In this document: piece after piece, positions 15,631 through 56,087 of the stretch
How positions within the stretch are numbered: position 1 is the stretch's first letter
Layout: each line of letters begins with the position of its first letter
IMG/VR virus record: IMGVR_UViG_3300042396_000723
Location: 32,001-96,000 of that record
Source of the DNA: a virus
Direction: 5' to 3' (one strand)
Length of the DNA: 64,000 nt
Notes under the pieces: model-generated
The model's input: only the letters and a program-made list of their open reading frames with translations
What the model was told of the DNA's origin: nothing
The model's database searches: none
Program-made: the position numbers and the translations under genes

Positions 15631-15909
15631 ATGAAGATTTCAATTTCAGAAGAATTGGATGACATTGGAATGTCCGCCGAAGCATTCCGAGTCTATTTTG
15701 CGATCGTTTGCCATATTGCAAATCACGAGACGTTTCCAACGGTTGATCAAATCACGTCAAAATGTTTTTCCAGACGACGCGCGTCTGGAAAAACGCAGAC
15801 AAGGCTTGCGTTGCGCGAGCTAATTAAGCTCGGTTTAATTAGCGGTGATATCGAAACGGAAAACTATACCTTAGTTCATCCCAGTAAGTGGGAAGTGGGG
15901 GCTGTATGA
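15631..15909 (+). CDS. winged-helix DNA-binding protein (replication-associated, putative)
   Basis: 92 aa; FRVYFAIV...FPTVDQITSKC...RLALRELIKLGLI resembles HTH domains at N-termini of replication initiators; ATGA overlap with next gene. Confidence 0.4.
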   Translation: MKISISEELDDIGMSAEAFRVYFAIVCHIANHETFPTVDQITSKCFSRRRASGKTQTRLALRELIKLGLISGDIETENYTLVHPSKWEVGAV

Positions 15910-37092: not shown

Positions 37093-37812
37093 TCAAGTGA
37101 TTAATTTTAAAGATTGAATGGCATCATCCCAGAAAAACTGACCAGGTGTAAATTCTCCCTGTTGCTCAACAAACCGTCTACCCCTCCATTCTACATAATC
37201 AATAAATCCCAAGTTCTCCCCAATATTAAAGACATTGAGTTTACCAATTAGCTCCTGATGTGCGGTATATTGCCCTGTCATCTCCAAAGTTTCCCCTCCT
37301 CTAATCCGACAGCAGGAATTAGAGCAATCAATCACAACTCGCTCCCCTACTTGCCCAAAATTAAGAGGGACACCTCTATTTAAAACTTGAGATACAATCA
37401 TTCCCAACGGAACAGATACTATCAACTCACACATTACCCTGGGGATAGGGGCGTTAAATTCTATGGTTAAATTAATACTATCAGGAACGGTATTAGTCGC
37501 AAAATAGACAGTAGTATTTTGTAAATAGAATCTTTGCCCAGTCAATCTATCTGGGTTTGTGGCTTGAATAAAATTGTTTATCCCGACCCGTAGAACAGCT
37601 AAAAAAGGCAGATTTATTTTATAAAGGGTAAAGACGGCATCAGGGGTTGTTAGCTCTGTTGGGGAAGGGTTAACGCCAGGGTATTTGTGAAATGTTTTAG
37701 TTTGAAATAAAGGAGCTAATGTCTGATTTCCTTGTGCAGACAAAATAGGAGCCGATAAATTAAATGGACTCAGGATTGTTGCGGGTAAGTTAGAATTAGA
37801 GAGCGTGAACAT
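37093..37812 (-). CDS. structural protein (putative)
   Basis: 239 aa upstream of the 788-aa protein. Confidence 0.4.
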   Translation of the reverse strand: MFTLSNSNLPATILSPFNLSAPILSAQGNQTLAPLFQTKTFHKYPGVNPSPTELTTPDAVFTLYKINLPFLAVLRVGINNFIQATNPDRLTGQRFYLQNTTVYFATNTVPDSINLTIEFNAPIPRVMCELIVSVPLGMIVSQVLNRGVPLNFGQVGERVVIDCSNSCCRIRGGETLEMTGQYTAHQELIGKLNVFNIGENLGFIDYVEWRGRRFVEQQGEFTPGQFFWDDAIQSLKLIT

Positions 37813-41997: not shown

Positions 41998-43986
41998 ATG
42001 ACCGCCCAATCATCCGAGACAACAAAAAAAGAAACCACCACAGAGATTGTGAATCGTTATAGAGAAGACTCTCGCGTCATGATGCAAGCGTTAGCGGAGA
42101 GTGCCGACGCAAGTTCGATGCGAAATCCTCTCCCTGTAACGGGAAGAATCCAGCCTTTCTCTCAACAGCAAGTAGAAAACTGTTTAGCAGACGCGATCTT
42201 AAAACGAATTGCATGGAGCCTTCCATCTTCGTCAACCCAAAAGATGTGGCAGTTATCCTTGGGGGATGACTTCTCTAGTAAGACGGGTTCTAAATTAGTC
42301 CGAGATTATTATGCCTATCACGAAAGATTGAAAACCATATCACAATTTAGAAAAGCATTGCAGTTCTCTCGCTCTCATGGTGGGACAGTTATTATTCTCA
42401 AGATTAACGATGGAAGACATTATTCCGAACCTGTTGATGAAGGCAAGATTAAATCAATCTCTGGGTTAATCGTTCGTCACCGATGGCAAGTTGCTCCTTC
42501 GGTGAGAACGGCTGCTAGTATATTTGACCTTGATGACATTGAACATTATGAAATCCTAACAATTGACCAACAAATAAAACAAAAATTACTATTTAACGGA
42601 ACAAATTCCAAGCAGGATGATCGCCTGATTCATCGGTCAAGAATCCTCCGGTTTAATGGGGCATTAATGCCTGATGATTGGATGATTTCCTATAACAATG
42701 GATGGGGATTGAGTGTCTTTGACGAGGTTTGGAAATATTATAAAAACTATACGAATGGACTCAATGCAGTAGGCGAATTAATTAAAACCCAATCAGTTCT
42801 ACAGCATTCTTTTGAAGGACTGCGGGAACTGATGATGGCATCTGATGAAGAAAGTATCGCAGCTATTAAGCAAACCATGAAATCAATCCGACTAATGTTT
42901 GATCTATATGGCATGGTTCTCCACGACTCCCGTGAACAATTCAACTGGAATGCCCGCCCCGTCGTCGGGATGGATTCACTCGTGCAAGTACAGAAGGATG
43001 GGGTAACAGGAGCCTCTGGGATGCCTCACACGATAGTTTGGGGAGAAAGCCCTGGGGGTTTGGGGCGTGATGGCAAGGAGACCCAAATCAACTATGCTAA
43101 CTCGGTGGCAGAGTACCAAGGAGAGAGCTTAGATCCTAGCGCAGCTATTCTTGATCGTTATATCTTCTTGGCTAAAGACGGCCCCACAAAAGGCAAAATC
43201 CCCGACAACTACCAGAGGCAGTACCCTTCTATCTTGAGGATGACCATCGAGGATCTCCGCTCTGGACGCTCATCTGATATTCAGGCATTGGCTTCAGGTA
43301 TTCAAGCCGGATTCATCACGACAGATGAAGCTCGGACAGTGCCTTCTAACTCCGGTTGGTGGCCAGAGCTTAATCTTGATCAAAAAGCATGGGAAGAAGC
43401 CAGGAAAAAAGCAGAAGAACAAGCAAACTCCCTTGGTGGTTTTGATATGGGAGCATTAGGAGGAGAGGAAGTTGCCCCACCCACTGAAGAACCCGTCGAA
43501 GAAGAATCTATAACTCAAATGGACAGTGCTGTTTACACCCCAATAAAGCGGGTTCTTAATTGGCACGGGCTATCAATTGGGGTCACTCACGATAAAGGGG
43601 ATCTTCGCTATAACAAAACGATGAAGGTAGGGTATGGGCATATTAGACGCAGCTATGGACACGCGGAGGACGCAAAAGCAATCGACGTTTATATCAAAAA
43701 TCCAAACTCACCTAGTCTCTGGAAGGTTCGGCAACTCAACACAACAACAGGGGAGATTGACGAAACAAAGTATTTCTTGGGTTTTGATTCCCCCAAAGAA
43801 GTGCGCGATTGCTATTACTATCATGCCGGATTAGATCGTTTTGGAGGAGTGGAGAAGTGCGATCCTACGGAATTAAACCAATATCGCCAAGATGCAGAAG
43901 AATTGGAGGGAGTTAATGAAGTTTATCAAAATAAGATATTAACAGATGTAGCAAATAGAATCAATCAACAAACTCAATTAGATTAA
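41998..43986 (+). CDS. portal protein candidate
   Basis: 662 aa; first gene of head block, divergent from terminase block; assignment by size and position. Confidence 0.45.
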   Translation: MTAQSSETTKKETTTEIVNRYREDSRVMMQALAESADASSMRNPLPVTGRIQPFSQQQVENCLADAILKRIAWSLPSSSTQKMWQLSLGDDFSSKTGSKLVRDYYAYHERLKTISQFRKALQFSRSHGGTVIILKINDGRHYSEPVDEGKIKSISGLIVRHRWQVAPSVRTAASIFDLDDIEHYEILTIDQQIKQKLLFNGTNSKQDDRLIHRSRILRFNGALMPDDWMISYNNGWGLSVFDEVWKYYKNYTNGLNAVGELIKTQSVLQHSFEGLRELMMASDEESIAAIKQTMKSIRLMFDLYGMVLHDSREQFNWNARPVVGMDSLVQVQKDGVTGASGMPHTIVWGESPGGLGRDGKETQINYANSVAEYQGESLDPSAAILDRYIFLAKDGPTKGKIPDNYQRQYPSILRMTIEDLRSGRSSDIQALASGIQAGFITTDEARTVPSNSGWWPELNLDQKAWEEARKKAEEQANSLGGFDMGALGGEEVAPPTEEPVEEESITQMDSAVYTPIKRVLNWHGLSIGVTHDKGDLRYNKTMKVGYGHIRRSYGHAEDAKAIDVYIKNPNSPSLWKVRQLNTTTGEIDETKYFLGFDSPKEVRDCYYYHAGLDRFGGVEKCDPTELNQYRQDAEELEGVNEVYQNKILTDVANRINQQTQLD

Positions 43987-44232
43987 TTTTAAATTAATTG
44001 GTTTTTGAATGCAACTTAGTCAGCCCATTTTATTTCACTAGGGTTGGCTAAGTTGTCTAAACTGTTACATCAAATCTTTGTCAGTTCCTGATTTACGGGC
44101 TACGTAAATCTATGTATAGGTTAAGGTAGTTTGGCAACAATTGGCACTTCGGACAGTAAGGACACCCCAGACCCACTGCAACGGTCTGTCTCCCGCCTAT
44201 TCACCAAGAAATCAATACAATAAAAAAGGTGT

Positions 44233-44257
44233 GATTTTCTTATATAGAAATTATTTT
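44233..44257 (+). promoter_or_regulatory. conserved 25-mer (late promoter candidate), copy 1
   Basis: GATTTTCTTATATAGAAATTATTTT, identical to 51250-51274; 74 nt upstream of ATG 44331. Confidence 0.4.
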
Positions 44258-44330
44258 ATAAAGTCCCGTTGATCTATAAGAATTTAACCTTAAAATTATA
44301 GTAATAACTTCTGATCAGAAGGGTTTTATC

Positions 44331-44723
44331 ATGCCAATTCCTGTTAGTTTTTTCAAGATTACAAGAGCCGGAAAGGATTACGCCTTCAAGCCCGAAGACA
44401 TCTCGTTTGGGGACGACGACACTCTTGAGGTTAAATTAAATCAAGGGGGAGATATAGCGGTCATCCCTCTTGTAAAAAAATCCGTGACATTAACAATTCA
44501 GGGTGCTGTTGACACTGATCTTGATACGTTTGAAACCGAGAGAACCCAAAATGTCCAAAACTTAATTGACAATCAGCCGGTTGGCGCAAACATGGCTTTT
44601 GCAAACTATATTATTTACAGTGCTTACTTGCGAAAAGTAACCCCCACTGCCCCAATTACCGTGTCAGGGAAGACCTTGTTTGACACAATTGAGTTAGAGT
44701 TTGCCTCTCGCGTTTACGTTTAA
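44331..44723 (+). CDS. hypothetical protein
   Basis: 130 aa. Confidence 0.4.
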   Translation: MPIPVSFFKITRAGKDYAFKPEDISFGDDDTLEVKLNQGGDIAVIPLVKKSVTLTIQGAVDTDLDTFETERTQNVQNLIDNQPVGANMAFANYIIYSAYLRKVTPTAPITVSGKTLFDTIELEFASRVYV

Positions 44724-44773
44724 ATTTATACTGCCTAAGCCAATCAAGGTTTAGGTAGTAGCCCCTAAAATCT

Positions 44774-45739
44774 ATGTATAAAAAGATGACACCAACAGAA
44801 ACTTCAGTAAAATTAGCGATTGCACAAGTCTTGTCAATGCCTTCTGTTTTTAACGCACCTCTTTACGTCTTGGATTTTAACATTGACGAAAAAGGGACGG
44901 TATCAGGAAGGTTTAGAGATGCTGCTAGACCCCGTGTATTTAGCTATGAGATTGCAGACGATGGAATAACCTTTAGTCCCTTTGTCCCTGGAAGAATGGA
45001 TAGCAGTGACTGGAAAGTAGAAGACTGGGAGAAGTTTTCAGATGGCTATTCGTTTAGGATTGACGCAGGGATGCAAAAACGAACCGACAAGCCAAAATGT
45101 AATCCGGCTGTTTCTTTTTCTTGTGGAAAGGCTTGTGTTAGTTTAAAAAAGAAATGCAAAACAGATCCTCAAGATCCGACTTCTGTAGCCAAGAAAGAAA
45201 AATTAAAAGCTGTTATTAAAGAGGTTACAGTTACCGACAAGACGAGCAAAATTAAAGTCAGTAAGGATAAATCTAGTAAGCCCAAAGCCAATAAATTGAT
45301 CAATGACCTAGAACCCTTAGAGCCATTAAACACCTCTCGGACACCCACTGAAACCGTGTTACCTGAGCTAAGTTCTAACAATGTTGTTAAGGGTCTTGGT
45401 GGTAAAGTGGGCAGAGGAAAATATTCAGGCGATGCGGGTAGGGATTTTGAAGATACTGGCAAGATGATGAACTACCCACTAAAAAGCGTTGTAGCCACAA
45501 AGGACATGAAAGGGAAGGAAAAAGAAGTGGCAGACGTAGCAAAAATGTTGAAAGAATCCGAGAGAAATTGGCTCCCTGTTTATGTCAAAGAAGTTAGACC
45601 TTACGAGTATGAAGTTGTCGGAAATCATTTGACCCATGCAGCAGCAATAAAAGCAGGGTTTGAGAGGATTTGGACTATTCCGGTTGATTCAGATCCGGCT
45701 ACTCTCAAACAGATTCAAATGTTAACAAACGGTAATTAA
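44774..45739 (+). CDS. polymorphic effector family member A (shared N-domain, Cys knuckle, ParB-like C-terminus)
   Basis: 321 aa; N-terminal VKLAIAQVLSMPSVFNAPLYVLDF...GRFRDAARPRVFSY; KPKCNPAVSFSCGKACVSLKKKCKTDP; C-terminal YEYEVVGNHLTHAAAIKAGFERIWTIPV resembles the ParB fold. Confidence 0.5.
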   Translation: MYKKMTPTETSVKLAIAQVLSMPSVFNAPLYVLDFNIDEKGTVSGRFRDAARPRVFSYEIADDGITFSPFVPGRMDSSDWKVEDWEKFSDGYSFRIDAGMQKRTDKPKCNPAVSFSCGKACVSLKKKCKTDPQDPTSVAKKEKLKAVIKEVTVTDKTSKIKVSKDKSSKPKANKLINDLEPLEPLNTSRTPTETVLPELSSNNVVKGLGGKVGRGKYSGDAGRDFEDTGKMMNYPLKSVVATKDMKGKEKEVADVAKMLKESERNWLPVYVKEVRPYEYEVVGNHLTHAAAIKAGFERIWTIPVDSDPATLKQIQMLTNGN

Positions 45740-45780
45740 TTCCTGTGTTTATTTTACAATCTTATAAATTAAGATTTGAT

Positions 45781-45858
45781 GCTCCGCCAACAGAAATCCA
45801 GGCGAAATTAGCGATCGCCAAAGTACATCTCAATATTGGTAGAAGTGAACTTAATTAA
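45781..45858 (+). pseudogene. remnant of family N-terminal domain
   Basis: Translates APPTEIQAKLAIAKV... then stop; resembles N-termini of family members (PTEAQMKLxIAQ) but no in-frame start. Confidence 0.3.
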
Positions 45859-45907
45859 GCAAAAACAAAGTACAATAGACTCATCGCATTAAAAAGGAAA
45901 ATCAATC

Positions 45908-46132
45908 ATGAAAGCTAAAAAAACTGCTGTTGAAGGACAGAAGAAAATTAAAACCGTTCCCCCTGCTGTTGTAGATGAAGATGAGGATGTTTTAGGGGAA
46001 GGGGAGACATTGCAGGAATTTGACAAGAGAATGGAGAAAAAATATCCGAAAAGAAGTTATGACGATTTGACAGAAGAAGAAAAACGCGAACGTGCCAAAC
46101 GTTTTGTAGCTCAAGGGCCGGAAGACTGGTAA
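45908..46132 (+). CDS. small acidic protein
   Basis: 74 aa between family members A and B. Confidence 0.35.
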   Translation: MKAKKTAVEGQKKIKTVPPAVVDEDEDVLGEGETLQEFDKRMEKKYPKRSYDDLTEEEKRERAKRFVAQGPEDW

Positions 46133-46181
46133 ACTCCCCAGCCCGCACCCGTACAAAAAAATTTAGTTTATCTCAAAAACA

Positions 46182-49100
46182 ATGGTCACAACCTTAAACC
46201 GTCAAAATCCCCGTCGCCTTGATGCTGCTCCTACGGAAGTGCAGATGAAACTTGGTATTTCTCAAGTTTTGTCGATGCCATTTGCCTACAACTCTCCGGT
46301 TATCGTTCTGGATTTTGAAGTAGGCAATAAAAACATCATCAAGGGACGGTTTAAGGATGCCATTAGATCCCGTGTTTTTGAGTTTGAGATTGGGGATTCT
46401 ATCACGTTCAAGCCGTTCACCTGGAGGCGAACGGATAGCGACGTTGACCCGATGGCATGGGAAGACTTCTCTAAAGGGTATTGCTACCGATTCGATGCAG
46501 TCAAGACCGTCAGAAAGGAAAAACCTAAGTGTGGCAATACTTCTTATAACTGCGGTAAAGCCTGCATTGGCTTAAACAAGAATTGCAAATCAGATCCCCC
46601 CGATAAACCGTCCCAGGAGAAAGTTGATAAACTCAGAGCCGCGGCAGGGGAGTTTAAAGCTGTTCAGGGCGATCCAACCAAGAAGCAAGAGGATAATAAG
46701 TTAACGCCAAAACCACAGGAAGTTAAGGAAGTCGCGCCCACCCCCTCTCCCGATAAAGCAGAAGTCCCTGTCACCGACCTTGCTAAACAGCCACCTGTTG
46801 CCTTAAAAATTGGTAAAAAATCAGTCAACCTAAAAGACGACCTTGATTCCTACAAAGATTTAAGAATAACCGCCGATCCCGTTTTAGGTTGGCAAGTTAT
46901 CAATAAGAATGGGAACGTACTGAGAGAACCGCCCAAGGGCAACACGGCTCCAAGTCATAGATTCAAGAAAAGAGAGCAGGCTGAAAAGTTTGCTAACGAT
47001 GTGATGACACGGGTTGAGAAGTTGCAGAAGGCTCAACCAAAACCGGATGCTGATGTAAGTGACTCTGATAAAAGGTCATTTGAAAGTCTTTACACCACAA
47101 AATTATCATCCGCCCAACAGTTGCTTAACTTAGAAAAAAACGCAAAAATAGCGCGAATATCTCCCAGTGAAGATCAAAAAAATTATGACAAAAAACAACC
47201 CGACCTCAATATTGATTCGGGGCCAGGAATAATGGAAGGTTGGAGGACTGCGAAACCAGACGGATCTGTCCAGGGAATCCCTTGGTCTGTCAAGGCGGAG
47301 GGTCAAGAAAAGTCACGGGCTATCGTGGGTGCTAGATTAACGGATCATCCAGCCAGCCCTAATTTAAAAAGACTCAGGTTATACGACGCAGACGGACGTA
47401 ATGAGACAATTGACTTCAAAAAGGGTGATAGAAACGCATCTCTTAGGGCTAGAAGACTTGTTAGAGAAATCGCACAAGGAAAGTCTCAAGAGATGGAATC
47501 TGGCGACATAAAAGCGTTGATTGAGGGAGGTAAAGAGGGTTTAGCTAAAAGAAAAGTGGAAAAGGCAAGATTAGCTGCTGAAGACAAGCAATTTAAAGCA
47601 GCCTTAGATGATTATTTAAAATCAAAAAACCTAACAAGAGAAAGCATTAAAGGTTTGACCGATATCGGAATGGACGATCTTATCGAAAAAGTTGAGAAAT
47701 ACCAGAAATCACGATCTCAAACCCCCAATTCAGCAGGGGATAAGGGTGCGGGGGGTAAAACGTTTGACCTAAATGATTTATGGCGACAAACCGCCGACGC
47801 TGCTTATTCTAAAAACAAAGATGGTGTCTCAAAAAATCTTGAGCAATGGAAGGAAGTTGTAAAAAAATTAGAGTCAGGAGAAGGGATCTCTAAAGACGTT
47901 AACTTAAACGAATACGAAAAGTTAATGGATAATTTAGAAAAAAAATTAGTCCTCGATCCCAAAGATCCGTCTAATGTTGAATTTAAAAAGATTACGGGAT
48001 CTATTTCTAAGATTCTTAGTAAAGCAGGCAGTCTCAACCCGTTAACACAAGAAGACCTAGAAAAAGCTCACCCTAACTTTAGACCAATCATGCAACGAAT
48101 TAATAAAACCGTTGCTAAGGATTATGAATTATTTGACAAAAAAGAGCGAGTTCAAAAAGAGTTAAATAGCCTAAAACAAGAAAAATCTTATAACGAGGCT
48201 GTGATATTAAATAATTCAAAACGATTCCGAGAAATAGGTATTAATAATAACGAGGTAGAAATTCAAAGACTTTCCAAGAAAAAACCGAGCGATTCAGTTG
48301 AGGTTAGAAATCCTGTCTCAAATTTACCAGAAAGGACTATTTCGGCATCCAAACGGATTAAGGAACTTCAAGATGAAATTGGGGAATTGAATAATAGTGA
48401 AAAAGCTAAAATAGAAGAAGACAGGGCTAGAAAAGAAATAGCCCGATTGCAAAGCCCAATGAAGGATGCAGAGAGTAGAATAAACGCCATTTTAGACGAG
48501 AAGAAAAAATTAAGGGAATCTCGCGGCGGATCTAGTTCACAATCAGAACCCAAGCAAACCCCAAATTCAGTAGGGGTTGATGGTGCGGGGGGTAAATCAG
48601 TTGATCAACAATATAAGGATATAATTGCTAAGTCGAAAGATCCAAAGGGAACAGAGGAAGTTTTATCGTCAGCATTAAGAGGTGGGTTTGGTGACTTTGA
48701 AAGAAAAAATTATAACGAATATTCAACCGCTATAAAATCTGGGACTGTTCCAAAAGGAATGGGGAACTATTATCAAAAACAAGTCGACAAATATAAACCC
48801 ATTATTGAGGCGGAAGATTTTATTAACGAAAGGAAGAAAAAAGCAATTAGTGGAGACTATGAAACAGAACAAGAAGCTGGGGTTTATGTTCTTAATAAAT
48901 TAAAGCAAAAAGGCTACAAAGAACACGAATATTATGACAGTCCAGACTATGAAAAAGATTATGGAAAATTGGTGGGGGTAATGAAATCTGTTAAACTTCC
49001 TCCGCCGTTGTCTGGTATCGTCCCCGGTAAAGAATTAAAACAGACATTAACTCCGGGTGACAAACTACTTGTTAAAGAGGATACTTATTCGTTAATGAGT

Positions 49101-49466
49101 AGTGGAAATACCCCTACTGGCTATCGAATAGTTGATGGTGGCGAAGTTTTAAAGGTTAATGTCAAGAATGTTAAAACCCGCGTTAGAGGCGAATACATGG
49201 GGAAACCCTACGAGAACGAGCCGTCTCTCGCTCTTGATAAAGTTACCCACGTCATCCGAGATGGTAAACGTTACAAGGTAGATGATTCTGATAGATCCCC
49301 CAATGACTTAAAGTCGGAATCCTCCAAATCCCAGAAAGCAGTAAAACAAAAGGCAGTAAAACAGAAAGCAATAAAAGTTCAAGGGGAGCGATCGCAAAAA
49401 CAAGAATCCCCTCTAATTCCGAAAGAGGAAATAGTTAAAGATGCTCCAATACTGATGTTAAGGTAA
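46182..49466 (+). CDS. polymorphic effector family member B (long repeat-containing C-terminus)
   Basis: 1094 aa; shared N-domain and KPKCGNTSYNCGKACIGLNKNCKSDP; internal repeats NSAGDKGAGGKTFD / NSVGVDGAGGKSVD; lysine-rich. Confidence 0.5.
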   Translation: MVTTLNRQNPRRLDAAPTEVQMKLGISQVLSMPFAYNSPVIVLDFEVGNKNIIKGRFKDAIRSRVFEFEIGDSITFKPFTWRRTDSDVDPMAWEDFSKGYCYRFDAVKTVRKEKPKCGNTSYNCGKACIGLNKNCKSDPPDKPSQEKVDKLRAAAGEFKAVQGDPTKKQEDNKLTPKPQEVKEVAPTPSPDKAEVPVTDLAKQPPVALKIGKKSVNLKDDLDSYKDLRITADPVLGWQVINKNGNVLREPPKGNTAPSHRFKKREQAEKFANDVMTRVEKLQKAQPKPDADVSDSDKRSFESLYTTKLSSAQQLLNLEKNAKIARISPSEDQKNYDKKQPDLNIDSGPGIMEGWRTAKPDGSVQGIPWSVKAEGQEKSRAIVGARLTDHPASPNLKRLRLYDADGRNETIDFKKGDRNASLRARRLVREIAQGKSQEMESGDIKALIEGGKEGLAKRKVEKARLAAEDKQFKAALDDYLKSKNLTRESIKGLTDIGMDDLIEKVEKYQKSRSQTPNSAGDKGAGGKTFDLNDLWRQTADAAYSKNKDGVSKNLEQWKEVVKKLESGEGISKDVNLNEYEKLMDNLEKKLVLDPKDPSNVEFKKITGSISKILSKAGSLNPLTQEDLEKAHPNFRPIMQRINKTVAKDYELFDKKERVQKELNSLKQEKSYNEAVILNNSKRFREIGINNNEVEIQRLSKKKPSDSVEVRNPVSNLPERTISASKRIKELQDEIGELNNSEKAKIEEDRARKEIARLQSPMKDAESRINAILDEKKKLRESRGGSSSQSEPKQTPNSVGVDGAGGKSVDQQYKDIIAKSKDPKGTEEVLSSALRGGFGDFERKNYNEYSTAIKSGTVPKGMGNYYQKQVDKYKPIIEAEDFINERKKKAISGDYETEQEAGVYVLNKLKQKGYKEHEYYDSPDYEKDYGKLVGVMKSVKLPPPLSGIVPGKELKQTLTPGDKLLVKEDTYSLMSSGNTPTGYRIVDGGEVLKVNVKNVKTRVRGEYMGKPYENEPSLALDKVTHVIRDGKRYKVDDSDRSPNDLKSESSKSQKAVKQKAVKQKAIKVQGERSQKQESPLIPKEEIVKDAPILMLR

Positions 49467-49641
49467 CAGATAGAGATGGAATTATTCTTGTGGAAGCCGA
49501 AGAAGTATAGAAAATTAACAATAAATTAGTGGTTTTGCTTCTGTTTTGCCCAAAATAAAACTGTTATAATTAATAATAACAAACGCCTCTCGCGGTGCGC
49601 TAACACCCAGAGGCAGTAGATCCTATCCAAGAGGAACCACA

Positions 49642-50370
49642 ATGACTAATTTATCATTATTACCTGACGATATTCGTTCTGAATTTTCCGTTAACGATCA
49701 AGGTCAGGCTTTTGCGAGTAGACGGGCGATCGCACGGTTGGCAGGCGTTTCTCATGTGTCCATCGGGAATCTATTGGATAAAATCGCTGTTAACCTAGAC
49801 CTCCCCGAAAGCATTGAAATCCTTGGAGGGCAGGACTTTGAGGGTGTTAACCTGATCCCTGATACCGTTGCCTCCCGGATTATTGAGTATTACGCTTTTG
49901 ATGCTAAACGTTATTGCACAGAACAAGCCAAGCGAGTTTATAAAGCATTCGGGGCTATCGGGTTTCGGTCGTGGGTACAAACTGAATTAGGTTGGCAATA
50001 TTCACAACCTAAGTTACCTCAGACTTATGCTGAGGCATTACTGGAGGCGGGACGGTTAGCGTTAGAAGTGGAGAAGTTGGAAGCCGAGAAAACATTGCTT
50101 GAGCAAGAGAATGGCGAACTCTCCAAAAATTTAGATGAGTTATTTGATTATTCCTCTATTGTTCGGATTGCCAAGTTTAACCAAATCTCAGAGAAAATCT
50201 TTAACTGGCGGTTACTCAAGGCATTGAGTCTTAAAATGGGGTTAGAAATTAAAAAAGTCCCGTGTCCCAGGTTTGAGACAAAAAGCCTATATTCTCACGA
50301 TGTCTGGCGTGTTGCTTATCCTGAAATGAAGCTACCAGAAACGACAACGCTAGTTATTAACAGAGGATAA
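49642..50370 (+). CDS. antirepressor-like protein with KilAC-like C-terminal domain
   Basis: 242 aa; C-terminus QTYAEALLEAGRLALEVEKLEAEK...YSHDVWRVAYP paralogous to 26760-27449. Confidence 0.55.
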   Translation: MTNLSLLPDDIRSEFSVNDQGQAFASRRAIARLAGVSHVSIGNLLDKIAVNLDLPESIEILGGQDFEGVNLIPDTVASRIIEYYAFDAKRYCTEQAKRVYKAFGAIGFRSWVQTELGWQYSQPKLPQTYAEALLEAGRLALEVEKLEAEKTLLEQENGELSKNLDELFDYSSIVRIAKFNQISEKIFNWRLLKALSLKMGLEIKKVPCPRFETKSLYSHDVWRVAYPEMKLPETTTLVINRG

Positions 50371-50446
50371 CCAAAACAGTAGGAGGGATGCGTTAAAACA
50401 TCCTTTCTCTGTACTAAGATCGGGGTATATCCTACTTTTTAACCCC

Positions 50447-50866
50447 ATGCTATCCCTAAGATTTAACGCCAATCAAGTCCGAAATTATCTAAATAAATTA
50501 ATTAAAAAGTTTCAGAATCTTAACCCCGAACTGCATAAAGTTGGGCAGTTTATGGTGGCATCAACCGATGAGAACTTCCAAAAGGAACAGAGTCCTTATG
50601 GGGAGAAATGGGAACACTTAGCACCATCAACCCTCAAATACAAGGCAAGTCGGGGTTTTATTATGCAAATATTACAACGCCAAGGATTGTTGCGATCTTC
50701 TATTCGGTATCGGATTGAAAAAGGAAGGGTTGAGGTAGGGAGTCCATTGCCCTATGCCTCCTATTTACAAGAAGGCACTAAGAAAATGCCTAAACGTCAA
50801 TTTTTAGGAGTAAGTCAACGCGATCGCAGGGAGATTATCGCTATTCTAAAGGATTCTCTTCGTTGA
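50447..50866 (+). CDS. phage virion morphogenesis protein (Mu gpG-like, putative)
   Basis: 139 aa; motif pattern and position in head module. Confidence 0.45.
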   Translation: MLSLRFNANQVRNYLNKLIKKFQNLNPELHKVGQFMVASTDENFQKEQSPYGEKWEHLAPSTLKYKASRGFIMQILQRQGLLRSSIRYRIEKGRVEVGSPLPYASYLQEGTKKMPKRQFLGVSQRDRREIIAILKDSLR

Positions 50867-51215
50867 TCTCGACGAGTTTATCAATAAGACCTGGGTTGAT
50901 TTCTTGAGGGATTTCTTGCTCAATAATCTTTAAAGTTTCCTTAGTCCAAGCAAGGATCAATCGTTCTGCCTCCGATTGATCCTCAGAAATTAACGAAGCG
51001 ATAATCAATAGTTCTACGAAATCCGTCCGTCGCTCCCCCATTAAAATCCGTCGAATTGTCTGCCAATCCCATCCACTTTTTTCACTAAATTCCATCATCC
51101 CAAAATTTGCATTTATAAGATCCCGTCGAATTGACCGACCAAGAGCGCGATAGGGAGCCAACGCACCAGATCCTAGTGTCTTCTTAGAAGGATACTCTCT
51201 TTTGATAGTAGTCAT
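50841..51215 (-). CDS. hypothetical protein
   Basis: 124 aa; lone minus-strand ORF in head block. Confidence 0.3.
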   Translation of the reverse strand: MTTIKREYPSKKTLGSGALAPYRALGRSIRRDLINANFGMMEFSEKSGWDWQTIRRILMGERRTDFVELLIIASLISEDQSEAERLILAWTKETLKIIEQEIPQEINPGLIDKLVEINEENPLE

Positions 51216-51249
51216 TATTTATATCTAAATCATTGGTTTAATTTTAGTC

Positions 51250-51274
51250 GATTTTCTTATATAGAAATTATTTT
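51250..51274 (+). promoter_or_regulatory. conserved 25-mer (late promoter candidate), copy 2
   Basis: GATTTTCTTATATAGAAATTATTTT identical to 44233-44257; 71 nt upstream of ATG 51345. Confidence 0.4.
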
Positions 51275-51344
51275 TTTACACCATCTTTAAATGACTGATA
51301 AGGTGCGTTATTCTTTAACAAGAATTATTTTTTTGTATTGAGAA

Positions 51345-52859
51345 ATGGTTGAAATCAGGCTTGATGCTCCAGCTAAATTTAGGGTAATCAGAACTGATGA
51401 TGGTCGCCTCCATTGTGAGGGGTCTTTTTGTCGTGATGGGGTGTTGGAATATCGTCAGCCTGATGGCTCCATAGTCCACGAACTCAGGAGACCGGAAACC
51501 AATGCAGAACTAGCCACAGTGGAGAGTTTTAAGCTCCTCCCCCTGGTAATTGAACATCCCCATGTTGGGCTTCTTAATAGCGAAAGTTATAAGGATTACG
51601 CAGTCGGGATGACTGATTCTTCTGCTTATTACAACAAGGCTGAAGGGGTGATCGAAGGCTTGGTGTCGTTTTTTGATGCTAAAGCGATCGCCCTAATTGA
51701 TTCAAGGGAAAAGGAACAGTTGTCTGCGGGATATACCTGCGATATCAAACAAGGGGCAGGGGTATGGAATGGTCAACACTACGACAGAGAACAGATTAAT
51801 GTTCGTGCTAACCATTTGGCTTTAACGAGCCGAGGAAGGGCAGGAGAAGATGCCCGTCTCCGATTAGATAGTGCTGCGGGGATTGGGCAAGCTGTTGCAG
51901 GGCAAGCTGTTGAAAACCCTAGTAACCCCAACAAAACCAAAGATAATGGAGATAATGAACAGCGCATGGCAATAATTAGATGCGATGGAGTCGAATATTC
52001 AGGAATCCCTGAAGTTTTCGCTTCTATTAGTGGTACTCGATTCCGTGAATTAAAAGAATTAAAGGAACGCCACGATTCGCTTGTTACACGGTTTGACGCT
52101 ACGATTCGGGAGAATCGGAAGCTAGAAGCCGCACAAGAGAACTACCAGTTTCGGTTGGATAACCTGGAAATCATTGTGGACAATGCTGACAATGTCCTTG
52201 GTGAATTAGGTTATTACCGGAACGACATGGGGCAATACGTCCGTGTTGATGGGGGCAAAAAGAAAATGATGTCTCTTGTTCCCGAAGATGAAGAAATGAT
52301 GGAAGATGAGGACAATGAAGATGAAGAAATGATGGAAGATGAGGTTATGGAAGAAAAAGAAACCATGACTTCCAGAAAGAAAAAAAAGTCCAAACCTCGT
52401 GCTGATGGCGACGATGAAGGCGAGAGTGATTACCGGGGTGATTCAATCGGGGATCTGTTGGCGATTTGGAAGGAAGCCGACAGTTTGTTACCAGGGTTCT
52501 CTGACACTCGGTTTGATAGTGGCTTCTCCACTAGCGATATCAAGCGCACTTTGTTGGCTGAAATCGAACCCAATATGGATTTGACGTTCCGATCCGATTC
52601 TTATGTAGACGGGGTTTTTGCCTACATTCAGGAGAATTATGATTCCTCCCCCACCGATCCAGGTGACGAAGAAGAAGGGGATGACGAGGAGGAAGACGAT
52701 GGAGACTCGGAGGAGTTTTCCCATCGCCTTGATTCGGTACTCAAAAGACCTGCTCAATCTACCTACGGAGATGAACTCACCGAATGGGAAAGACGACGGG
52801 TAGATGCCTATAAGCAGCCTTTAACGATAGGAAAAACACGCACGGGGTTTACTAGATAA
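51345..52859 (+). CDS. head morphogenesis protein (protease/scaffold-like)
   Basis: 504 aa; acidic C-terminal region with 33-bp tandem repeat (EDEEMMEDE x2); position before capsid candidates. Confidence 0.4.
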   Translation: MVEIRLDAPAKFRVIRTDDGRLHCEGSFCRDGVLEYRQPDGSIVHELRRPETNAELATVESFKLLPLVIEHPHVGLLNSESYKDYAVGMTDSSAYYNKAEGVIEGLVSFFDAKAIALIDSREKEQLSAGYTCDIKQGAGVWNGQHYDREQINVRANHLALTSRGRAGEDARLRLDSAAGIGQAVAGQAVENPSNPNKTKDNGDNEQRMAIIRCDGVEYSGIPEVFASISGTRFRELKELKERHDSLVTRFDATIRENRKLEAAQENYQFRLDNLEIIVDNADNVLGELGYYRNDMGQYVRVDGGKKKMMSLVPEDEEMMEDEDNEDEEMMEDEVMEEKETMTSRKKKKSKPRADGDDEGESDYRGDSIGDLLAIWKEADSLLPGFSDTRFDSGFSTSDIKRTLLAEIEPNMDLTFRSDSYVDGVFAYIQENYDSSPTDPGDEEEGDDEEEDDGDSEEFSHRLDSVLKRPAQSTYGDELTEWERRRVDAYKQPLTIGKTRTGFTR

Positions 52860-53689
52860 TGCGGTACAATTACAATCTTCAATTTGATCGGGCGACTCCT
52901 GGCATGGGCGAGGGATCTATTAATTTTCCGAGGGTCAAAGCCCTTGTTTCTGTCAAGAATGCTGTTAAAGAGGTCTGGACTCTGGCGGTTCCTGCCTCCC
53001 CCACTTCTAGCACTACATATACCGTCAAATTAAACAACGGACTAGGTACGGCACGTTTTACAACCGACGCTAGTGCCACTCAAGCGGAACTGCAAGCTGG
53101 TTTATTGAATGCAATCCGAATAAACCCTGCTTTTGGGCGACGAGGGATTGCTGCTGTTAGTGGGAATAATGTGTTGTTTACAGCACTGGAATATGGTATC
53201 GAAAATATCCTAACAGTTACTGGTGCTAGTTTAACAGCAACTAAAACTACGGCGATGACCATACCTCTTCCTGTCCCCTTCGGTCGGTTTGTCGCCAGAG
53301 CAAACACTGAAACCGATCCCAAAGTTGCAGGGCTTCCTACTGCTATTACTGACGTAATCCTGGGCATTACTCGAATCGTCAAAGATATCGAAATGCAGCC
53401 TTTGATAAATCAAGGTGCAAGCTATGGTGGAACGACTTACCCATATCAAGATGTGATGGACGTGGTTGACCGGACAGGAGAATCGTCAGGGATCTGGGTT
53501 GAATGTGTCGAGACGGATATCACAATTAATGATGCCGTCTATGTCTCTATTGCTGCGGGACACGAGGGGAAAGCAACAAAGGTGACAAGTGGCACGATTA
53601 ATATCTCCACGAAGGCTGAGTTCAAGTGTTCCCCCGTAGTCACTAGCACTGGTGCGGTGTGCGTTTTGATCGGCTTCAATGTTCCCTAA
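52859..53689 (+). CDS. head structural protein (decoration or capsid-related, putative)
   Basis: 276 aa between scaffold-like and capsid candidate. Confidence 0.35.
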   Translation: MRYNYNLQFDRATPGMGEGSINFPRVKALVSVKNAVKEVWTLAVPASPTSSTTYTVKLNNGLGTARFTTDASATQAELQAGLLNAIRINPAFGRRGIAAVSGNNVLFTALEYGIENILTVTGASLTATKTTAMTIPLPVPFGRFVARANTETDPKVAGLPTAITDVILGITRIVKDIEMQPLINQGASYGGTTYPYQDVMDVVDRTGESSGIWVECVETDITINDAVYVSIAAGHEGKATKVTSGTINISTKAEFKCSPVVTSTGAVCVLIGFNVP

Positions 53690-53714
53690 TTTGTATAGAA
53701 AGAATTTATAAACT

Positions 53715-54668
53715 ATGATGAACTTTTCTGGGACTACAAGGTTAGATGCTGATGAAATCGGCACGTTCTTTGGCTCTCTGATGGATTTAGAGGCTCAGAT
53801 AGATAAGGAATTTGACCTTGCGGACTATCCTTTCGCTGCTGGAGTCATTTGCCCTCTGAATATCCAAAACAAGCCCTGGGCAAAAACCTGGGGGTATCGG
53901 TGGCTCCGCCACGTTGGGCAGTTCAAGTTAATCCGAAACTACACCACAGACCTTCCCGAAGTGGAACTGGTCTATGGCGAGATGAAGATGCCGATTCATA
54001 AATGGGGACAAGGCTATAGCGTCTCTGAGGATGATATCGCGGCTGTTAGTCGGATGGGCGAGAGTATTGAAGAAGACAAAATCTGGACAATTCAAGAAGC
54101 CGCACAACAAAAAATCAATCAGTTGGTGGCAAACGGGGATTTAGAAACAGGAATGCCCGGTTTCTTGAATCATCCCCAAGCACTGCGGTCTTATGCTCCC
54201 TTCCCTTTGAACGGGTCAGCAACATCACAGCAAAAACTGAGTGTATTGAATGATTGTGTTAATGCTCCGACTCGGCTGACCAATAACCGAGAGAAGCCGG
54301 ACACATTGTTGATGGATTCGGAAACTTACGAACACCTCTCCTCGGATATTATTCAAATCGGCACATCCGCATTGGATCGTACGGTGTTAGAGCATTTCTT
54401 AAAAGTCAACCCTAATATCAAAGAAGTCGGCGTTGTGTCCGAGATGGCTCCTGACTATTTAGAGTCGATTGGTTTAGCTCCCACCCGCTTTATTCAGGCT
54501 TTCCGTCGAGATCCCAAAAAAGTCTCTGCTAAGATTTATCAACCGTTAAAGTGGACTGATACTCGCCCCATTGGTGTTGATTCTTTCTGGCGTGGTGCCA
54601 AGTTTAAGTTTGGGGGAATTGATCTCAAACGCCCATTCTCCATGCACGTTGTAGTATTACCTGAATAA
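53715..54668 (+). CDS. major capsid protein candidate
   Basis: 317 aa; position after scaffold and before connectors; preceded by a TATAGAAA motif. Confidence 0.45.
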   Translation: MMNFSGTTRLDADEIGTFFGSLMDLEAQIDKEFDLADYPFAAGVICPLNIQNKPWAKTWGYRWLRHVGQFKLIRNYTTDLPEVELVYGEMKMPIHKWGQGYSVSEDDIAAVSRMGESIEEDKIWTIQEAAQQKINQLVANGDLETGMPGFLNHPQALRSYAPFPLNGSATSQQKLSVLNDCVNAPTRLTNNREKPDTLLMDSETYEHLSSDIIQIGTSALDRTVLEHFLKVNPNIKEVGVVSEMAPDYLESIGLAPTRFIQAFRRDPKKVSAKIYQPLKWTDTRPIGVDSFWRGAKFKFGGIDLKRPFSMHVVVLPE

Positions 54669-54670
54669 AA

Positions 54671-55150
54671 ATGTCTAAAACTATCATCTTTGACCCCAAA
54701 CTAAATCCTCACAATCCACGCATTCCCTATGGAATATCAGTGGAGGCTATCACTTCGCCGATTCGTTTTTCCCGTCCCATTAATCGTGGGGGAACCAAGA
54801 AAACTTCCTTAGATGCGGTAGAAACACGGGGGAGTTGGATTCTTCCTGGGACTAATTTAGAACTTCCCGACGAGGACTATGAGTATATTACTCGGCATCC
54901 TCTCGGATTACAACTTATTAATTGCGGAGCATTCAGAATCATCTCTCCCACACTAGAGGAAGGGAAGTTTCCCACTGAAACAACCCTTGATTATATTGAA
55001 AAAGATGCCCTCGATCTGATTCGCAATTCTAGCGATATTGATTGGTTAGAACGATCCGAGAAAAGAGAAGGTCGTCCCGCTATTTCTAGGGCAATAGCAG
55101 AGCAAATCAAGAATATCAAGTCAGTCAATACTATGAACATCCGGGGGTAG
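54671..55150 (+). CDS. head-tail connector / head completion protein (putative)
   Basis: 159 aa; position. Confidence 0.35.
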   Translation: MSKTIIFDPKLNPHNPRIPYGISVEAITSPIRFSRPINRGGTKKTSLDAVETRGSWILPGTNLELPDEDYEYITRHPLGLQLINCGAFRIISPTLEEGKFPTETTLDYIEKDALDLIRNSSDIDWLERSEKREGRPAISRAIAEQIKNIKSVNTMNIRG

Positions 55151-55153
55151 TAA

Positions 55154-55489
55154 ATGGTTCTCCCTTCCGAATTTTTAGCGGTTTATCCTCAGTTCGCTGT
55201 GGTCGAATCTTCTGTGATTCAATACAGTTTAAACTTTGCCGAGAATAATTACTGCGCTGGTTGGGCAGATCCCAAGAGAACGGATGGAATTATGTTGATT
55301 GCTGCCCATCGAATCAGCGTTGATTGGTTCCAACAGGCGGATATTGCCTCTAGTGTTACGGGAATCGCATCGGGGTCAGGGAGTTCCACCCCTTCTGGCT
55401 CCGAGAATGATTGGTCTTTAACGACTTACGGGAGGCAATATATCCACCTCCGCAATACTATCTTCACTCCCCCTATTTTGGTCTTATGA
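55154..55489 (+). CDS. head-tail connector protein (putative)
   Basis: 111 aa; position. Confidence 0.35.
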   Translation: MVLPSEFLAVYPQFAVVESSVIQYSLNFAENNYCAGWADPKRTDGIMLIAAHRISVDWFQQADIASSVTGIASGSGSSTPSGSENDWSLTTYGRQYIHLRNTIFTPPILVL

Positions 55490-55671
55490 AAGTACAGTTC
55501 CCTGATTTCTCAGTTGATAATGGTCGAGTTACTTCTGCCGGGATGGTAACTCCTGCTTCCCCAGAATTGCAAGCTATGGCAGCGATTTATGTGGTGTTAC
55601 AAGAAATTAACGAGAAGTTAGACAAATCAGACCACGCCCCGGTTTCTCATACTCCTAAAGAGAAGAAATGA
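55486..55671 (+). CDS. hypothetical small protein
   Basis: Start moved to ATG 55486 (MKVQF), overlapping upstream stop (ATGA); track start 55411. Confidence 0.3.
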   Translation: MKVQFPDFSVDNGRVTSAGMVTPASPELQAMAAIYVVLQEINEKLDKSDHAPVSHTPKEKK

Positions 55672-56087
55672 GTCAATCTTTCGTTGAGCAAATGATAGCC
55701 CTAAGAGACCGAATCTCTCCCCTTGCGGGGGGATTTGGCAATCCCAACATTCAAAACCTCGTCGTTCGCACAAGAGTGGGCGATGGGTACGAATATTTGG
55801 AGATTTCCCCAACTCCGGTTATCCAAAAACAATTCCCAAACAAGGAGGGGATTGAAAACCTAAGCTCAGTGGAGGGGATAACTAGATCCTATTCAGTTAA
55901 AGGGATTTCACGGCGTTATTTAGAGGTGCAATTGAAAGGGGAGGGGGTTGACTATCTAGTCGGAGCCGATACTACTTATTACCCTCCTGATGGCGTTGTT
56001 TGTAACTTAGTCTCACTAACAGAAAATGTTGTGACGTGGGACATGGAGTTAGTTGAGAAGATTAGCTCACAAGGTTTTTATTTGTGA
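55668..56087 (+). CDS. hypothetical protein (connector region)
   Basis: 139 aa; start overlaps upstream stop. Confidence 0.35.
   Translation: MSQSFVEQMIALRDRISPLAGGFGNPNIQNLVVRTRVGDGYEYLEISPTPVIQKQFPNKEGIENLSSVEGITRSYSVKGISRRYLEVQLKGEGVDYLVGADTTYYPPDGVVCNLVSLTENVVTWDMELVEKISSQGFYL

Follow-up and report, generated by a model that had tools for sequence, protein, structure and literature searches.

Classical CI/Cro switches lie in the early or immunity region of phage genomes, and phages that rely on a single-subunit RNA polymerase carry the polymerase gene together with a directional, conserved promoter of about 20 nt. In T4-type phages, short and near-identical regulatory repeats known as PeSLs stand before genes that border a region of variable content; they are early promoters present in many copies, contain a stable stem-loop, and mark recombination junctions. 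In restriction-modification (R-M) systems, the gene for the controller (C) protein is co-transcribed with or adjacent to the endonuclease gene, and the C-boxes lie directly upstream of the C gene. Controller proteins serve as timing switches that activate when their concentration is low and repress when it is high (PMC2504287), and C.Esp1396I governs two separate promoters through related operators (PMC3488213). The late promoters of phage Mu (Plys, PI, PP, and Pmom) depend on C, a small phage-encoded helix-turn-helix dimer that binds an upstream dyad and activates morphogenetic operons (PMC2582627; PMC4461284). The target of this Mor/C-family protein is a 16-bp dyad with its centre at -43.5, in place of a -35 element (PMC2582627).

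The locus compared here with these systems is a pair of identical 25-nt sequences in a window of 64,000 nucleotides (positions 32,001 to 96,000 of IMG/VR virus record IMGVR_UViG_3300042396_000723) from a relative of the Planktothrix phage PaV-LD. As reported in a first-pass annotation, the sequence GATTTTCTTATATAGAAATTATTTT occurs exactly twice on the plus strand (Table 1). Counted from its last base, the A of the next ATG follows 74 nt later for the gene at 44331 and 71 nt later for that at 51345 (73 and 70 intervening nucleotides, respectively). PaV-LD has the same two copies and none besides in 95 kb. Neither chance nor a larger duplication accounts for the pair, as had also been proposed: there is no third match at up to three mismatches, the next-nearest sequence in the window differs at no fewer than seven positions (at least 7 mismatches), and none of 100 shuffles matched, while the similarity between the copies stops at 29 nt (90%; repeat family D15) and their flanks are unrelated, so that the 25-mer is not a piece of something longer. 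Fuzzy searches of the window and of PaV-LD with the 25-mer, its 16-mer core, and the dyad (up to two mismatches) brought up no additional intergenic site. The sole other perfect dyad in the window is inside a coding region at 6281. One exact 21-mer match in a contig of 20% GC (L011) was taken as chance, and the extra matches returned by a scan with the lineage C pattern (L071-L073), which fall within unrelated coding DNA, were rejected on the same ground.

Table 1. Features of the two 25-mer loci and the surrounding head module, in window coordinates.
Feature	Position	Strand	Description
Strong 14-bp hairpin	44013-44054	+	Directly after the portal stop codon
Copy 1 of the 25-mer	44233-44257	+	In the 344-nt spacer from the portal gene (41998-43986) to the 130-aa gene at 44331
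Dyad of copy 1	44236-44250, centre 44243		TTTCT-TATAT-AGAAA; conserved in lineages B and C
Predicted sigma-70-type promoter, operon 1	44269-44296	+	TTGATC (44269-44274), 16-nt spacer, TAAAAT (44291-44296)
Target operon 1 (putative)	44331-50866	+	130-aa gene, minor-head-protein paralogues, Ant/KilAC-like gene, virion morphogenesis gene (Mu G-like, Phage_tail_S)
XRE-type helix-turn-helix protein, 124 aa	50841-51215	-	Homologue of PaV-LD ORF070L, annotated as hypothetical
Predicted -10 of the regulator's own promoter	51241-51246	-	TAAAAT, 6 nt from the dyad edge, read from the sequence
Copy 2 of the 25-mer	51250-51274	+	In the 129-nt divergent spacer from the regulator start at 51215 (-) to the protease start at 51345 (+)
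Dyad of copy 2	51253-51267, centre 51260		Conserved in lineages B, C, and D
Predicted sigma-70-type promoter, operon 2	51286-51314	+	TTTAAA (51286-51291), 17-nt spacer, TATTCT (51309-51314)
Target operon 2 (putative), start	51345-56087	+	Prohead protease, minor capsid protein, major head protein, then structural genes

The genes downstream of the two copies do belong to the head module to which they were first assigned. The gene at 51345-52859 encodes a prohead protease (DUF2213, PHROG 530), and that at 44331-44723 is a conserved gene of 130 aa, with no function assigned, between the portal and minor-head genes. The PaV-LD homologue of the latter is annotated with a GTG start 30 nt upstream; this codon is GTA in the window, which indicates that the ATG at 44331 is the shared start. 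The gene content of operon 1 varies among relatives, and operon 2 may extend further to the right than the genes listed. The module is Mu-like (Phage_portal_3, a Mu G-like Phage_tail_S gene, protease and then major head protein), and copy 2, between the G-like gene and the protease, occupies what we take to be the place of PI on the Mu map. In contrast to Mu, however, the regulator has an XRE fold and is encoded within the head module on the opposite strand, the predicted dyad position is about -60, and -35-like hexamers are present. A Mor/C-type geometry (-43.5) was rejected because the -10 that it needs at +32 occurs at copy 1 alone, in lineages A and B, and lacks conservation, and membership of the Mor/C activator family was rejected because the regulator folds as XRE.

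The core of the 25-mer is a dyad, TTTCT-N5-AGAAA, whose half-site centres are 10 bp apart, which turns both half-sites to the same side of the helix. In relatives of the window, which were collected via protein similarity without use of the motif, the half-sites TTTCT and AGAAA show no change (lineages A, B, and C, and the more distant locus L075) and the central 5 nt are variable, and the distance from the dyad centre to the ATG is 85-90 nt in eight of nine loci. The motifs of lineages A and C are identical at 19-20 of 25 positions, in flanking spacers that share 31-56% identity and that blastn does not align. Change in the two copies is concerted. In lineage B, the same A-to-G change is found in both copies on the same contigs (TTTCTTGTATAGAAA), and in lineage C three identical changes in both copies, giving TTTCTCTnAGAGAAA, lengthen the palindrome to 7-N1-7 (copy 1, GATTTTCTCTTAGAGAAAC; copy 2, cATTTTCTCTCAGAGAAAT). 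As the two copies of lineage C were read from different short contigs, concerted change within the same genome is proven for lineage B only. Gene conversion between the copies could be a partial cause. The idea that spacer 1 is an exceptionally conserved non-coding island was rejected, since the neighbouring 3' end of the portal gene is equally conserved (98%, same relatives) and the spacer is part of a mosaic block.

Beyond these lineages, homologues of the regulator at 33-48% identity keep the gene order of G-like gene, regulator (opposite strand), and protease, and each has a palindrome in the same regulator-protease spacer. The sequences are TTTCTCTCAGAGCAA in L074, two tandem TTTCTCTnAGAGAAA in L075, and CTTATATTGAT-A-ATCAATATAAG in L076 and L077, a clade in which the recognition helix also differs (WDIQT/WGYET vs WDWQT). 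The palindrome thus co-varies with the regulator clade, as read from contigs under 2.1 kb around this spacer. Searches of IMG/VR, metagenome, and genome collections for long contigs of these distant clades gave lineages A-C only. Distant relatives of the protease (35% identity, 58% GC) have neither the divergent regulator nor the palindrome.

The trans-acting factor, which the first-pass annotation proposed to look for outside the window, has its best candidate inside it, in the 124-aa helix-turn-helix gene adjoining copy 2. The ORF has no Pfam match even at E = 1 and fails the HTH_3 threshold; its homologues P0004 and P0007 give sub-threshold HTH_3 matches (E 0.006 and 0.055), and the ORF itself matches PHROG repressor/regulator families (E about 9e-4), reaches bona fide HTH_3 proteins by phmmer (E about 5e-4 in 1.8 billion sequences), and has an hhalign probability of 93%. 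The AF2 model, whose pLDDT exceeds 90 over residues 20-100, is a five-helix bundle (16-35, 40-47, 51-58, 66-76, and 80-101) in which helices 2-3 form the helix-turn-helix. The top 25 PDB matches found by Foldseek are all XRE regulators, including C.BclI, C.AhdI, and ClgR (target-normalised TM up to 0.82, rmsd 2.1 A, E-values about 1e-2). Judged by this model, the ORF is a diverged XRE-type helix-turn-helix protein. A separate HTH_3 protein at 14916-15401 is a candidate for the early or immunity switch role in the window.

Predicted sigma-70-type promoters lie downstream of both copies. That of operon 1 passes the consensus scan and has a predicted start near 44303, which would place the dyad centre at about -60; lineage C keeps the TTG of its -35 and the TAAAnT of its -10 in surroundings that have diverged. 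That of operon 2 was read from the sequence (8 of 12 consensus positions, below the consensus-scan threshold), with a predicted start near 51321 and the dyad centre at about -61. Both -35/-10 assignments are weak, agreeing with the consensus at 8-9 of 12 positions. Both copies in lineages A and C, and L074, have a TAnnnT hexamer at +48/49 from the dyad centre; any shared hexamer offset arose in only 88 of 20,000 shuffles. A second such hexamer lies inside the 25-mer at +9, through which a promoter may overlap the repeat. The -10-like hexamer assigned to the regulator's own promoter, 6 nt past the palindrome, is found also in lineage B and L074 (TAAAAT) and in L077 (TACAAT), and since the dyad overlaps the -35/spacer of this predicted promoter, autorepression is suggested. 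A literature search found no mapping of promoters or transcript starts in PaV-LD.

On balance, and judged from the sequence, the 25-mer is probably an operator in two copies through which the phage's own XRE-type regulator of 124 aa co-ordinates two head operons. It looks like a dyad-symmetric protein-binding site some 60 bp upstream of ordinary sigma-70-type promoters. The earlier proposal of a late promoter or activator site accordingly survives as a cis-regulatory site shared at a fixed distance by two late (head) operons, given its conservation, its concerted change, the 85-90 nt from dyad to ATG, and the -35/-10-like hexamers downstream, but not as a core late promoter. From the repeat, its conservation and concerted evolution, the helix-turn-helix character of the gene beside copy 2, and the way the palindrome varies with the regulator clade, we infer binding, transcription starts, and the sign of regulation as follows. 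A dimer of the regulator would bind TTTCT-N5-AGAAA. About 60 bp downstream of each copy, transcription would start from an ordinary sigma-70-type promoter, for which the A/T-rich 3' portion of the 25-mer may serve as an upstream promoter element. Promoter 1 would drive the genes from 44331 to the Mu G-like gene, and promoter 2 the operon of prohead protease and major head protein; because both carry the same operator, one regulator would co-ordinate both head-morphogenesis operons. Transcription of the regulator gene would run away from that of the protease operon, and copy 2, lying in the spacer common to both, would also cover the -35/spacer of the leftward promoter and bring about autorepression. 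For the rightward promoters, our best guess is activation from a class-I-like position. A repressor would be unusual at a dyad centred on -60, which counts against the operator-pair reading.

This arrangement combines features of several known systems. Like the Cro/CI-type repressors, the regulator has the XRE fold and is divergent from a target operon, with a proposed palindromic operator in the common spacer that probably also autoregulates; unlike the CI/Cro pairs, it is found among the late structural genes and would have another operator at a distance. Structurally, the 124-aa protein is matched best by the R-M C proteins (C.AhdI, C.BclI, C.Esp1396I, and C.PvuII), which are also its best, though non-significant, PDB sequence matches and which are, as the regulator is proposed to be, small XRE-type dimers on short palindromes by their own gene. 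The regulator differs from them by an added C-terminal helix and tail (residues 80-124) and by having virion genes as its putative targets. An actual R-M controller system was rejected, as the neighbours are a virion morphogenesis gene and a prohead protease, with no restriction or modification genes, and only the fold is shared; an identity with C-boxes was likewise rejected, the operator sequence being unrelated to them. It is conceivable, though we hold it unlikely, that the analogy goes further and that the pair forms a self-timed switch within the head module, like a relocated R-M C-protein circuit, with negative autoregulation at copy 2 and a regulator that activates at low concentration and represses at high. 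If so, the timing and stoichiometry of the two capsid operons would be independent of the early immunity switch, and the 25-bp identity would let the hypervariable cargo operon between the copies swap as a unit.

Other explanations have to be weighed against the operator pair. The 25-mer might be the core of a phage-specific late promoter, used by a phage polymerase or sigma-like factor or as a -10-only promoter through the TAnnnT of its 3' flank (TATTTT), with starts about 65-70 nt before each ATG and the dyad either incidental or an operator between -35 and -10. The exact 25-nt identity recalls the long conserved promoters of phages with their own polymerase, the hexamer at +9 is kept in lineages A, B, and C (TATTTT/TATCTT/TACTTT), and large ORFs without Pfam match (707, 575, and 788 aa) leave room for a novel polymerase. 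We nevertheless regard such a promoter as improbable, since neither an RNA polymerase nor a sigma domain emerged from a Pfam scan of 40 ORFs (about 30 kb of the genome lie beyond the window), no -35-like element is present upstream of the motif, and the distant relatives conserve symmetric half-sites rather than a directional sequence: L074 is without the +9 hexamer, and the different palindrome of L076/L077 is perfectly symmetric. A dyad-symmetric, promoter-proximal site would suit any dimeric factor, including one of the Planktothrix host that ties the head genes to host physiology, in which case the neighbouring helix-turn-helix gene would be unrelated. This is quite unlikely, as the palindrome shifts along with the clade of the adjoining phage regulator, and gene and site stay adjacent across 33-48% protein identity; moreover, we know of no cyanobacterial regulator with a TTTCT-N5-AGAAA site.

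Two further possibilities concern recombination and RNA. Modelled on the promoter-stem-loop cassettes of T4-type phages, the 25-mers could serve as recombination substrates or mark the ends of a cassette that moves or is exchanged, which would account for the variable segment between them; the distance between copies ranges from 3.6 to 9.75 kb among relatives, the copies evolve in concert as under gene conversion, and here too near-identical short repeats lie ahead of genes bordering a variable region. Compared with PeSLs, however, there are two copies only, the hairpin is weak, and the junctions are elsewhere: the breaks in gene content fall inside the operon, near 44791 and 50000-50448, away from the repeats. 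No integrase or transposase was found between the copies, and the palindrome of the regulator-protease spacer is kept in distant relatives whether repeated or not, all of which makes a cassette very unlikely. An RNA-level role, in which a hairpin and U-run end the portal transcript and antisense read-through before the protease operon, or serve as a processing site, appears extremely improbable, even though TTTCT-TATAT-AGAAA with TTATTTT(TTT) behind it resembles an intrinsic terminator in outline (on the plus strand only). Six variants folded at -1.8 to -4.2 kcal/mol (z -0.9 to +0.15), no better than shuffles, a terminator scan was silent on the 25-mers, and the palindrome of L077 has no T-run behind it. 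An intrinsic (Rho-independent) terminator was rejected, the stem being 5 bp with one G-C pair (-1.8 to -2.6 kcal/mol, z about -0.2 to -0.4). Straight after the portal stop lies a much stronger hairpin (region MFE -63.8 kcal/mol, z = -2.5), whose stem changes in relatives preserve pairing via wobble pairs; as a candidate element for ending the portal transcript or making it more stable, it is preferable to the 25-mer. No known RNA families or tRNAs were found in the window.

Read as an operator pair with its regulator, the locus is most likely a switch of an ordinary phage kind, previously unannotated in the PaV-LD phage group. PaV-LD-type cyanophages infect Planktothrix agardhii, a bloom-forming and toxin-producing species, and the reading provides a concrete, testable circuit for late-gene timing in these phages, consisting of PaV-LD ORF070L, reassigned as a DNA-binding regulator, a probable 15-bp operator, and two target operons. 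The natural operator variants (those of lineages A, B, and C and the CTTATATTGAT type) are paired with regulator variants and thus form a specificity series, and the regulator-operator pair could be an orthogonal part for cyanobacterial genetics. Transcripts of the circuit could also flag late infection in metatranscriptomes.

The 25-mer occurs exactly twice on the plus strand of the window (table), and its copies end 74 and 71 nt ahead of the ATGs at 44331 and 51345, as the first-pass annotation had stated. Its view that the repeat is not due to chance is borne out, since the window holds no further site at three or fewer mismatches (the next-best sites have seven) and shuffles gave none; it was also right that no larger duplication is involved, the likeness stopping at 29 nt (90%, repeat family D15) between unrelated flanks. 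The element is composed of an inverted repeat, TTTCT-TATAT-AGAAA, followed by TTATTTT. Judged from its sequence, the pair is real and functional, and we consider it reasonably probable that it forms a two-copy operator through which a phage-encoded XRE-type regulator co-ordinates two head operons. A third perfect dyad (TTTCT-N5-AGAAA) lies at 6281-6295 (context 6278-6302, GATTTTCTTAATCAGAAAT) within a minus-strand 268-aa ORF (5933-6739) and is kept in PaV-LD as AATTTTCTTAATCAGAAAT; as chance alone predicts about 0.2 perfect dyads per window, it may be a chance occurrence or a weak internal site.

Features of the head module and palindromes beside distant regulator homologues (window positions)
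Feature	Position	Strand	Sequence or annotation
25-mer, copy 1	44233-44257	+	GATTTTCTTATATAGAAATTATTTT, exact match
25-mer, copy 2	51250-51274	+	GATTTTCTTATATAGAAATTATTTT, exact match
Portal gene	41998-43986		Phage_portal_3 and C-terminal pyrophosphatase-like domain
Mu G-like Phage_tail_S gene	50447-50866		head module
124-aa ORF (putative regulator)	50841-51215	-	homologue of PaV-LD ORF070L, annotated hypothetical
Prohead protease gene	51345-52859		next genes: minor capsid protein, major head protein
Predicted promoter after copy 1	44269-44296		TTGATC-16-TAAAAT (promoter scan)
Predicted promoter after copy 2	51286-51314		TTTAAA-17-TATTCT (same offsets as copy 1 elements)
Paralogue family members	44774-45739, 46182-49466, 56125-57549, 57651-59516, 59598-60716, 60713-61852, 62134-63585, 63696-end		
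L074 spacer palindrome			TTTCTCTCAGAGCAA
L075 spacer palindromes			two tandem TTTCTCTnAGAGAAA sites, 29 bp apart
L076 spacer palindrome			CTTATCTTGATAGTCAATATAAG
L077 spacer palindrome			CTTATATTGAT-A-ATCAATATAAG, perfect

The window is closely related to Planktothrix phage PaV-LD, with 95.6% identity across 75% of 43900-52900 and about 81% identity in other parts, and PaV-LD carries the same 25-mer, exact, at 37503-37527 and 47256-47280, with no copy beyond these two in the 95 kb searched. The 344-nt spacer that holds copy 1 separates the portal gene from a conserved 130-aa gene (44331) whose function is unknown, and copy 2 lies in a 129-nt spacer between the 124-aa ORF and the prohead protease gene, in a head module of Mu-like order (portal, Mu G-like Phage_tail_S gene, protease, major head protein). 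The portal C-terminal domain matches Pfam InPase (inorganic pyrophosphatase; E 5e-26), an unusual fusion. Directly 3' of the portal stop codon stands a strong 14-bp hairpin (44013-44054), its pairing kept by G-U pairs despite substitutions in relatives, which is a candidate terminator or stabiliser of the portal transcript. At 44157/44158, in the spacer between the portal gene and 44331, a segment of about 245 nt is missing from both the window and PaV-LD but present in three related loci (L004, L006, L014) and in those of lineage B; it has GACAG microhomology at its edges and holds a HIP1-like palindrome, GCGATCGC, and a motif-like stretch, ATTTTCTTAAAA...TATATAGAGAAAT, and the difference would stem from deletion or from a small mobile insert. 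The operon between the 25-mers varies chiefly in minor-head-type paralogues. At least eight such genes share an N-terminal region that includes a Cys-rich stretch (D2-D10 repeat families) and differ in their C-terminal parts; the family matches PHROG 16619 'minor head protein' and may comprise diversified head-internal or ejected proteins. There are also two paralogous Ant/Rha/KilAC-like regulator genes (49642-50370 and 26760-27449; DNA about 70% identical over 340 nt), one of them in the head operon that the 25-mers flank, where the variable region of PaV-LD has a KilA-like gene instead.

A search of IMG/VR for exact 21-mer matches brought up 16 PaV-LD-like contigs, which were chosen by the motif itself; more informative are relatives found independently of it, by protein similarity to the protease and to the 130-aa gene product. 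In protein sequence, the protease is 82-87% identical in lineage B and 56% in lineage C; lineage A is that of the window and PaV-LD. Lineage B sites read GATTTTCTTGTATAGAAATTATTTT (copy 1) and TATTTTCTTGTATAGAAATTATTTT (copy 2), with an identical A-to-G change at both copies within single contigs (L089, L091, L093). In lineage C, copy 1 is GATTTTCTCTTAGAGAAACTATCTTTT (contigs L062/L070) and copy 2 cATTTTCTCTCAGAGAAATTACTTTT (L039/L069/L081), taken from separate short contigs; both differ from the window by the same three changes, T9C, A10T and T13G, which make the dyad a perfect 7-N1-7 palindrome, and a simple count puts at about 0.003 the probability that copies with 5 and 6 substitutions over 25 positions would have three identical ones in common. 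The motif of lineage C matches that of lineage A at 19-20 of 25 positions and the rest of the spacer at 31-56%, blastn detecting nothing of the spacer outside the motif. The concerted changes and this footprint together argue that selection acts on the half-sites TTTCT/AGAAA, whose centres are 10 bp apart, and that the copies evolve in concert. Lineage B includes a 49-kb PaV-LD-like contig (L103, JBIPLY010000606.1) binned in a MAG labelled Acetobacteraceae, probably a binning artefact.

The dyad centre lies 88, 88 and 86 nt from the start codon at copy 1 in lineages A, B and C, and 85, 88, 89, 89 and 90 nt from the protease start in lineages A, B and C and two distant loci (L074, L077), with a third such locus, L076, as an outlier at 117 nt. 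Promoters are predicted after both copies, and in lineage C the TTG and TAAAnT of the copy 1 promoter are kept amid diverged surroundings. In lineages A and C, a TAnnnT hexamer begins 48-49 nt past the dyad centre at both copies, as it does in L074; this is the sole TAnnnT offset outside the 25-mer common to both copies in A and C, and a shared offset of any kind arose in only 88 of 20000 shuffles. If these hexamers are -10 elements, transcripts would start near 44303 and 51321 on the plus strand, and the dyad centres would fall near -60/-61 and the 25-mer at about -70 to -46, the zone that serves class I activators as well as upstream promoter elements. The literature search yielded no transcript mapping for PaV-LD, and the start sites here are predictions. 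A second palindrome lies near each start codon, at 44311-44324 (CTTCTGATCAGAAG, mostly kept in lineage C) and 51310-51325 (ATTCTTTAACAAGAAT; ATTCTTTAAAAAGAAT in lineage B); both have TTCT...AGAA at other spacings and may be 5'-UTR elements or secondary sites.

Several lines of evidence point to an XRE-type fold for the 124-aa ORF. The protein has no Pfam match and matches PHROG transcriptional repressors/regulators weakly (E ~9e-4); phmmer over 1.8 billion representatives found five family members (33-48% identity), ranked just above bona fide multi-HTH_3 proteins, and the family profile, aligned by hhalign with one of the latter, gave 93% probability. Its AlphaFold model is confident over residues 20-100, and the best PDB matches, C.BclI, C.AhdI, C.EcoT38IS, C.Esp1396I and ClgR, are all XRE-type. 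The probable recognition helix, WDWQT(I/V)RRI, is the same in lineages A and C, in agreement with their unchanged half-sites. Distant homologues keep the gene order (G-like gene, opposite-strand regulator, protease), and every regulator-protease spacer among them contains a palindrome; in L076 and L077 the recognition helices are altered, to WDIQT and WGYET. With its place by the regulator gene constant and its sequence tracking the regulator clade, the palindrome looks like the cognate operator of the adjacent regulator. On the regulator strand, a -10-like hexamer (TAAAAT/TACAAT) follows the palindrome by 6 nt in lineages A and B, L074 and L077, so that the operator would share sequence with the -35/spacer region of the regulator's own promoter (predicted start near 51234, minus strand), an arrangement suggestive of autorepression.

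A separate HTH_3 (CI-like) gene (14916-15401, minus strand) diverges from replication genes (15631-15909, plus strand) across a 229-nt spacer, probably an early/immunity switch distinct from the head-module regulator. Within the replication-initiator gene (15888-17081), four direct repeats, each about 19 nt long (ATCGGGAATCCCAATTTAC; 23-24 nt spacing, 16389-16477) look like origin iterons, as in lambda O. Tandem 51-nt repeats at 30536-30841 (about six units, 66-72% identical) lie inside a minus-strand 707-aa ORF (29935-32058) and thus correspond to a 17-residue protein repeat.

As an operator pair, the 25-mers would both be recognised by the regulator, coupling the protease/major-head operon to the one that runs from 44331 to the G-like gene, and the regulator would probably control its own expression at copy 2. 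The -60 geometry favours activation of the rightward promoters, the alternatives being repression or a promoter overlapping the motif. The first-pass proposal of a late promoter or activator site was broadly right as to an activator site; that the 25-mer is a phage-specific core promoter is rather unlikely, for although a TAnnnT falls inside it, at +9 from the dyad centre, its conserved portion is symmetric and the 40 ORFs scanned include no polymerase or sigma factor. The trans factor, which that annotation would have sought outside the window, is probably the gene adjoining copy 2, given the XRE-type evidence and the co-variation. The same co-variation of palindrome and phage regulator makes a site for a host factor quite improbable.

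Inter-copy distances of 3.6 to 9.75 kb in relatives might suit a cassette boundary or recombination site, but the breakpoints, near 44791 and 50000-50448, lie away from the repeats, and we hold this to be very unlikely. Action as a terminator is exceedingly improbable, the hairpin being too weak: its RNA folding is negligible in the window (-1.8 to -2.6 kcal/mol, z near zero), the strongest among the variants reaches -4.2 kcal/mol, and the terminator scan of the window did not call it. Given also the far stronger hairpin at 44013-44054, it is much more probable that the 25-mer is recognised as double-stranded DNA than as RNA.

The closest functional analogue is Mu late transcription, in which the activator C binds a dyad at four promoters of late genes, namely Plys, PI, PP and Pmom (PMC2582627, PMC4461284). 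Unlike Mu C, the regulator here has a putative XRE fold, and the dyad is predicted at about -60, against -43.5 in Mu. PI sits between Mu genes G and I, the position matching copy 2. The controller proteins of R-M systems, which the regulator resembles in structure, work as timing switches: they are XRE dimers of small size that recognise palindromes next to their own gene (PMC2504287, PMC3488213); here, however, R-M genes play no part and the operator is unrelated in sequence. The regulator/operator pair belongs to neither family and is a previously unannotated phage regulatory device of a familiar kind, unsurprising in principle and of use in studying the biology of PaV-LD-type cyanophages and in engineering them.
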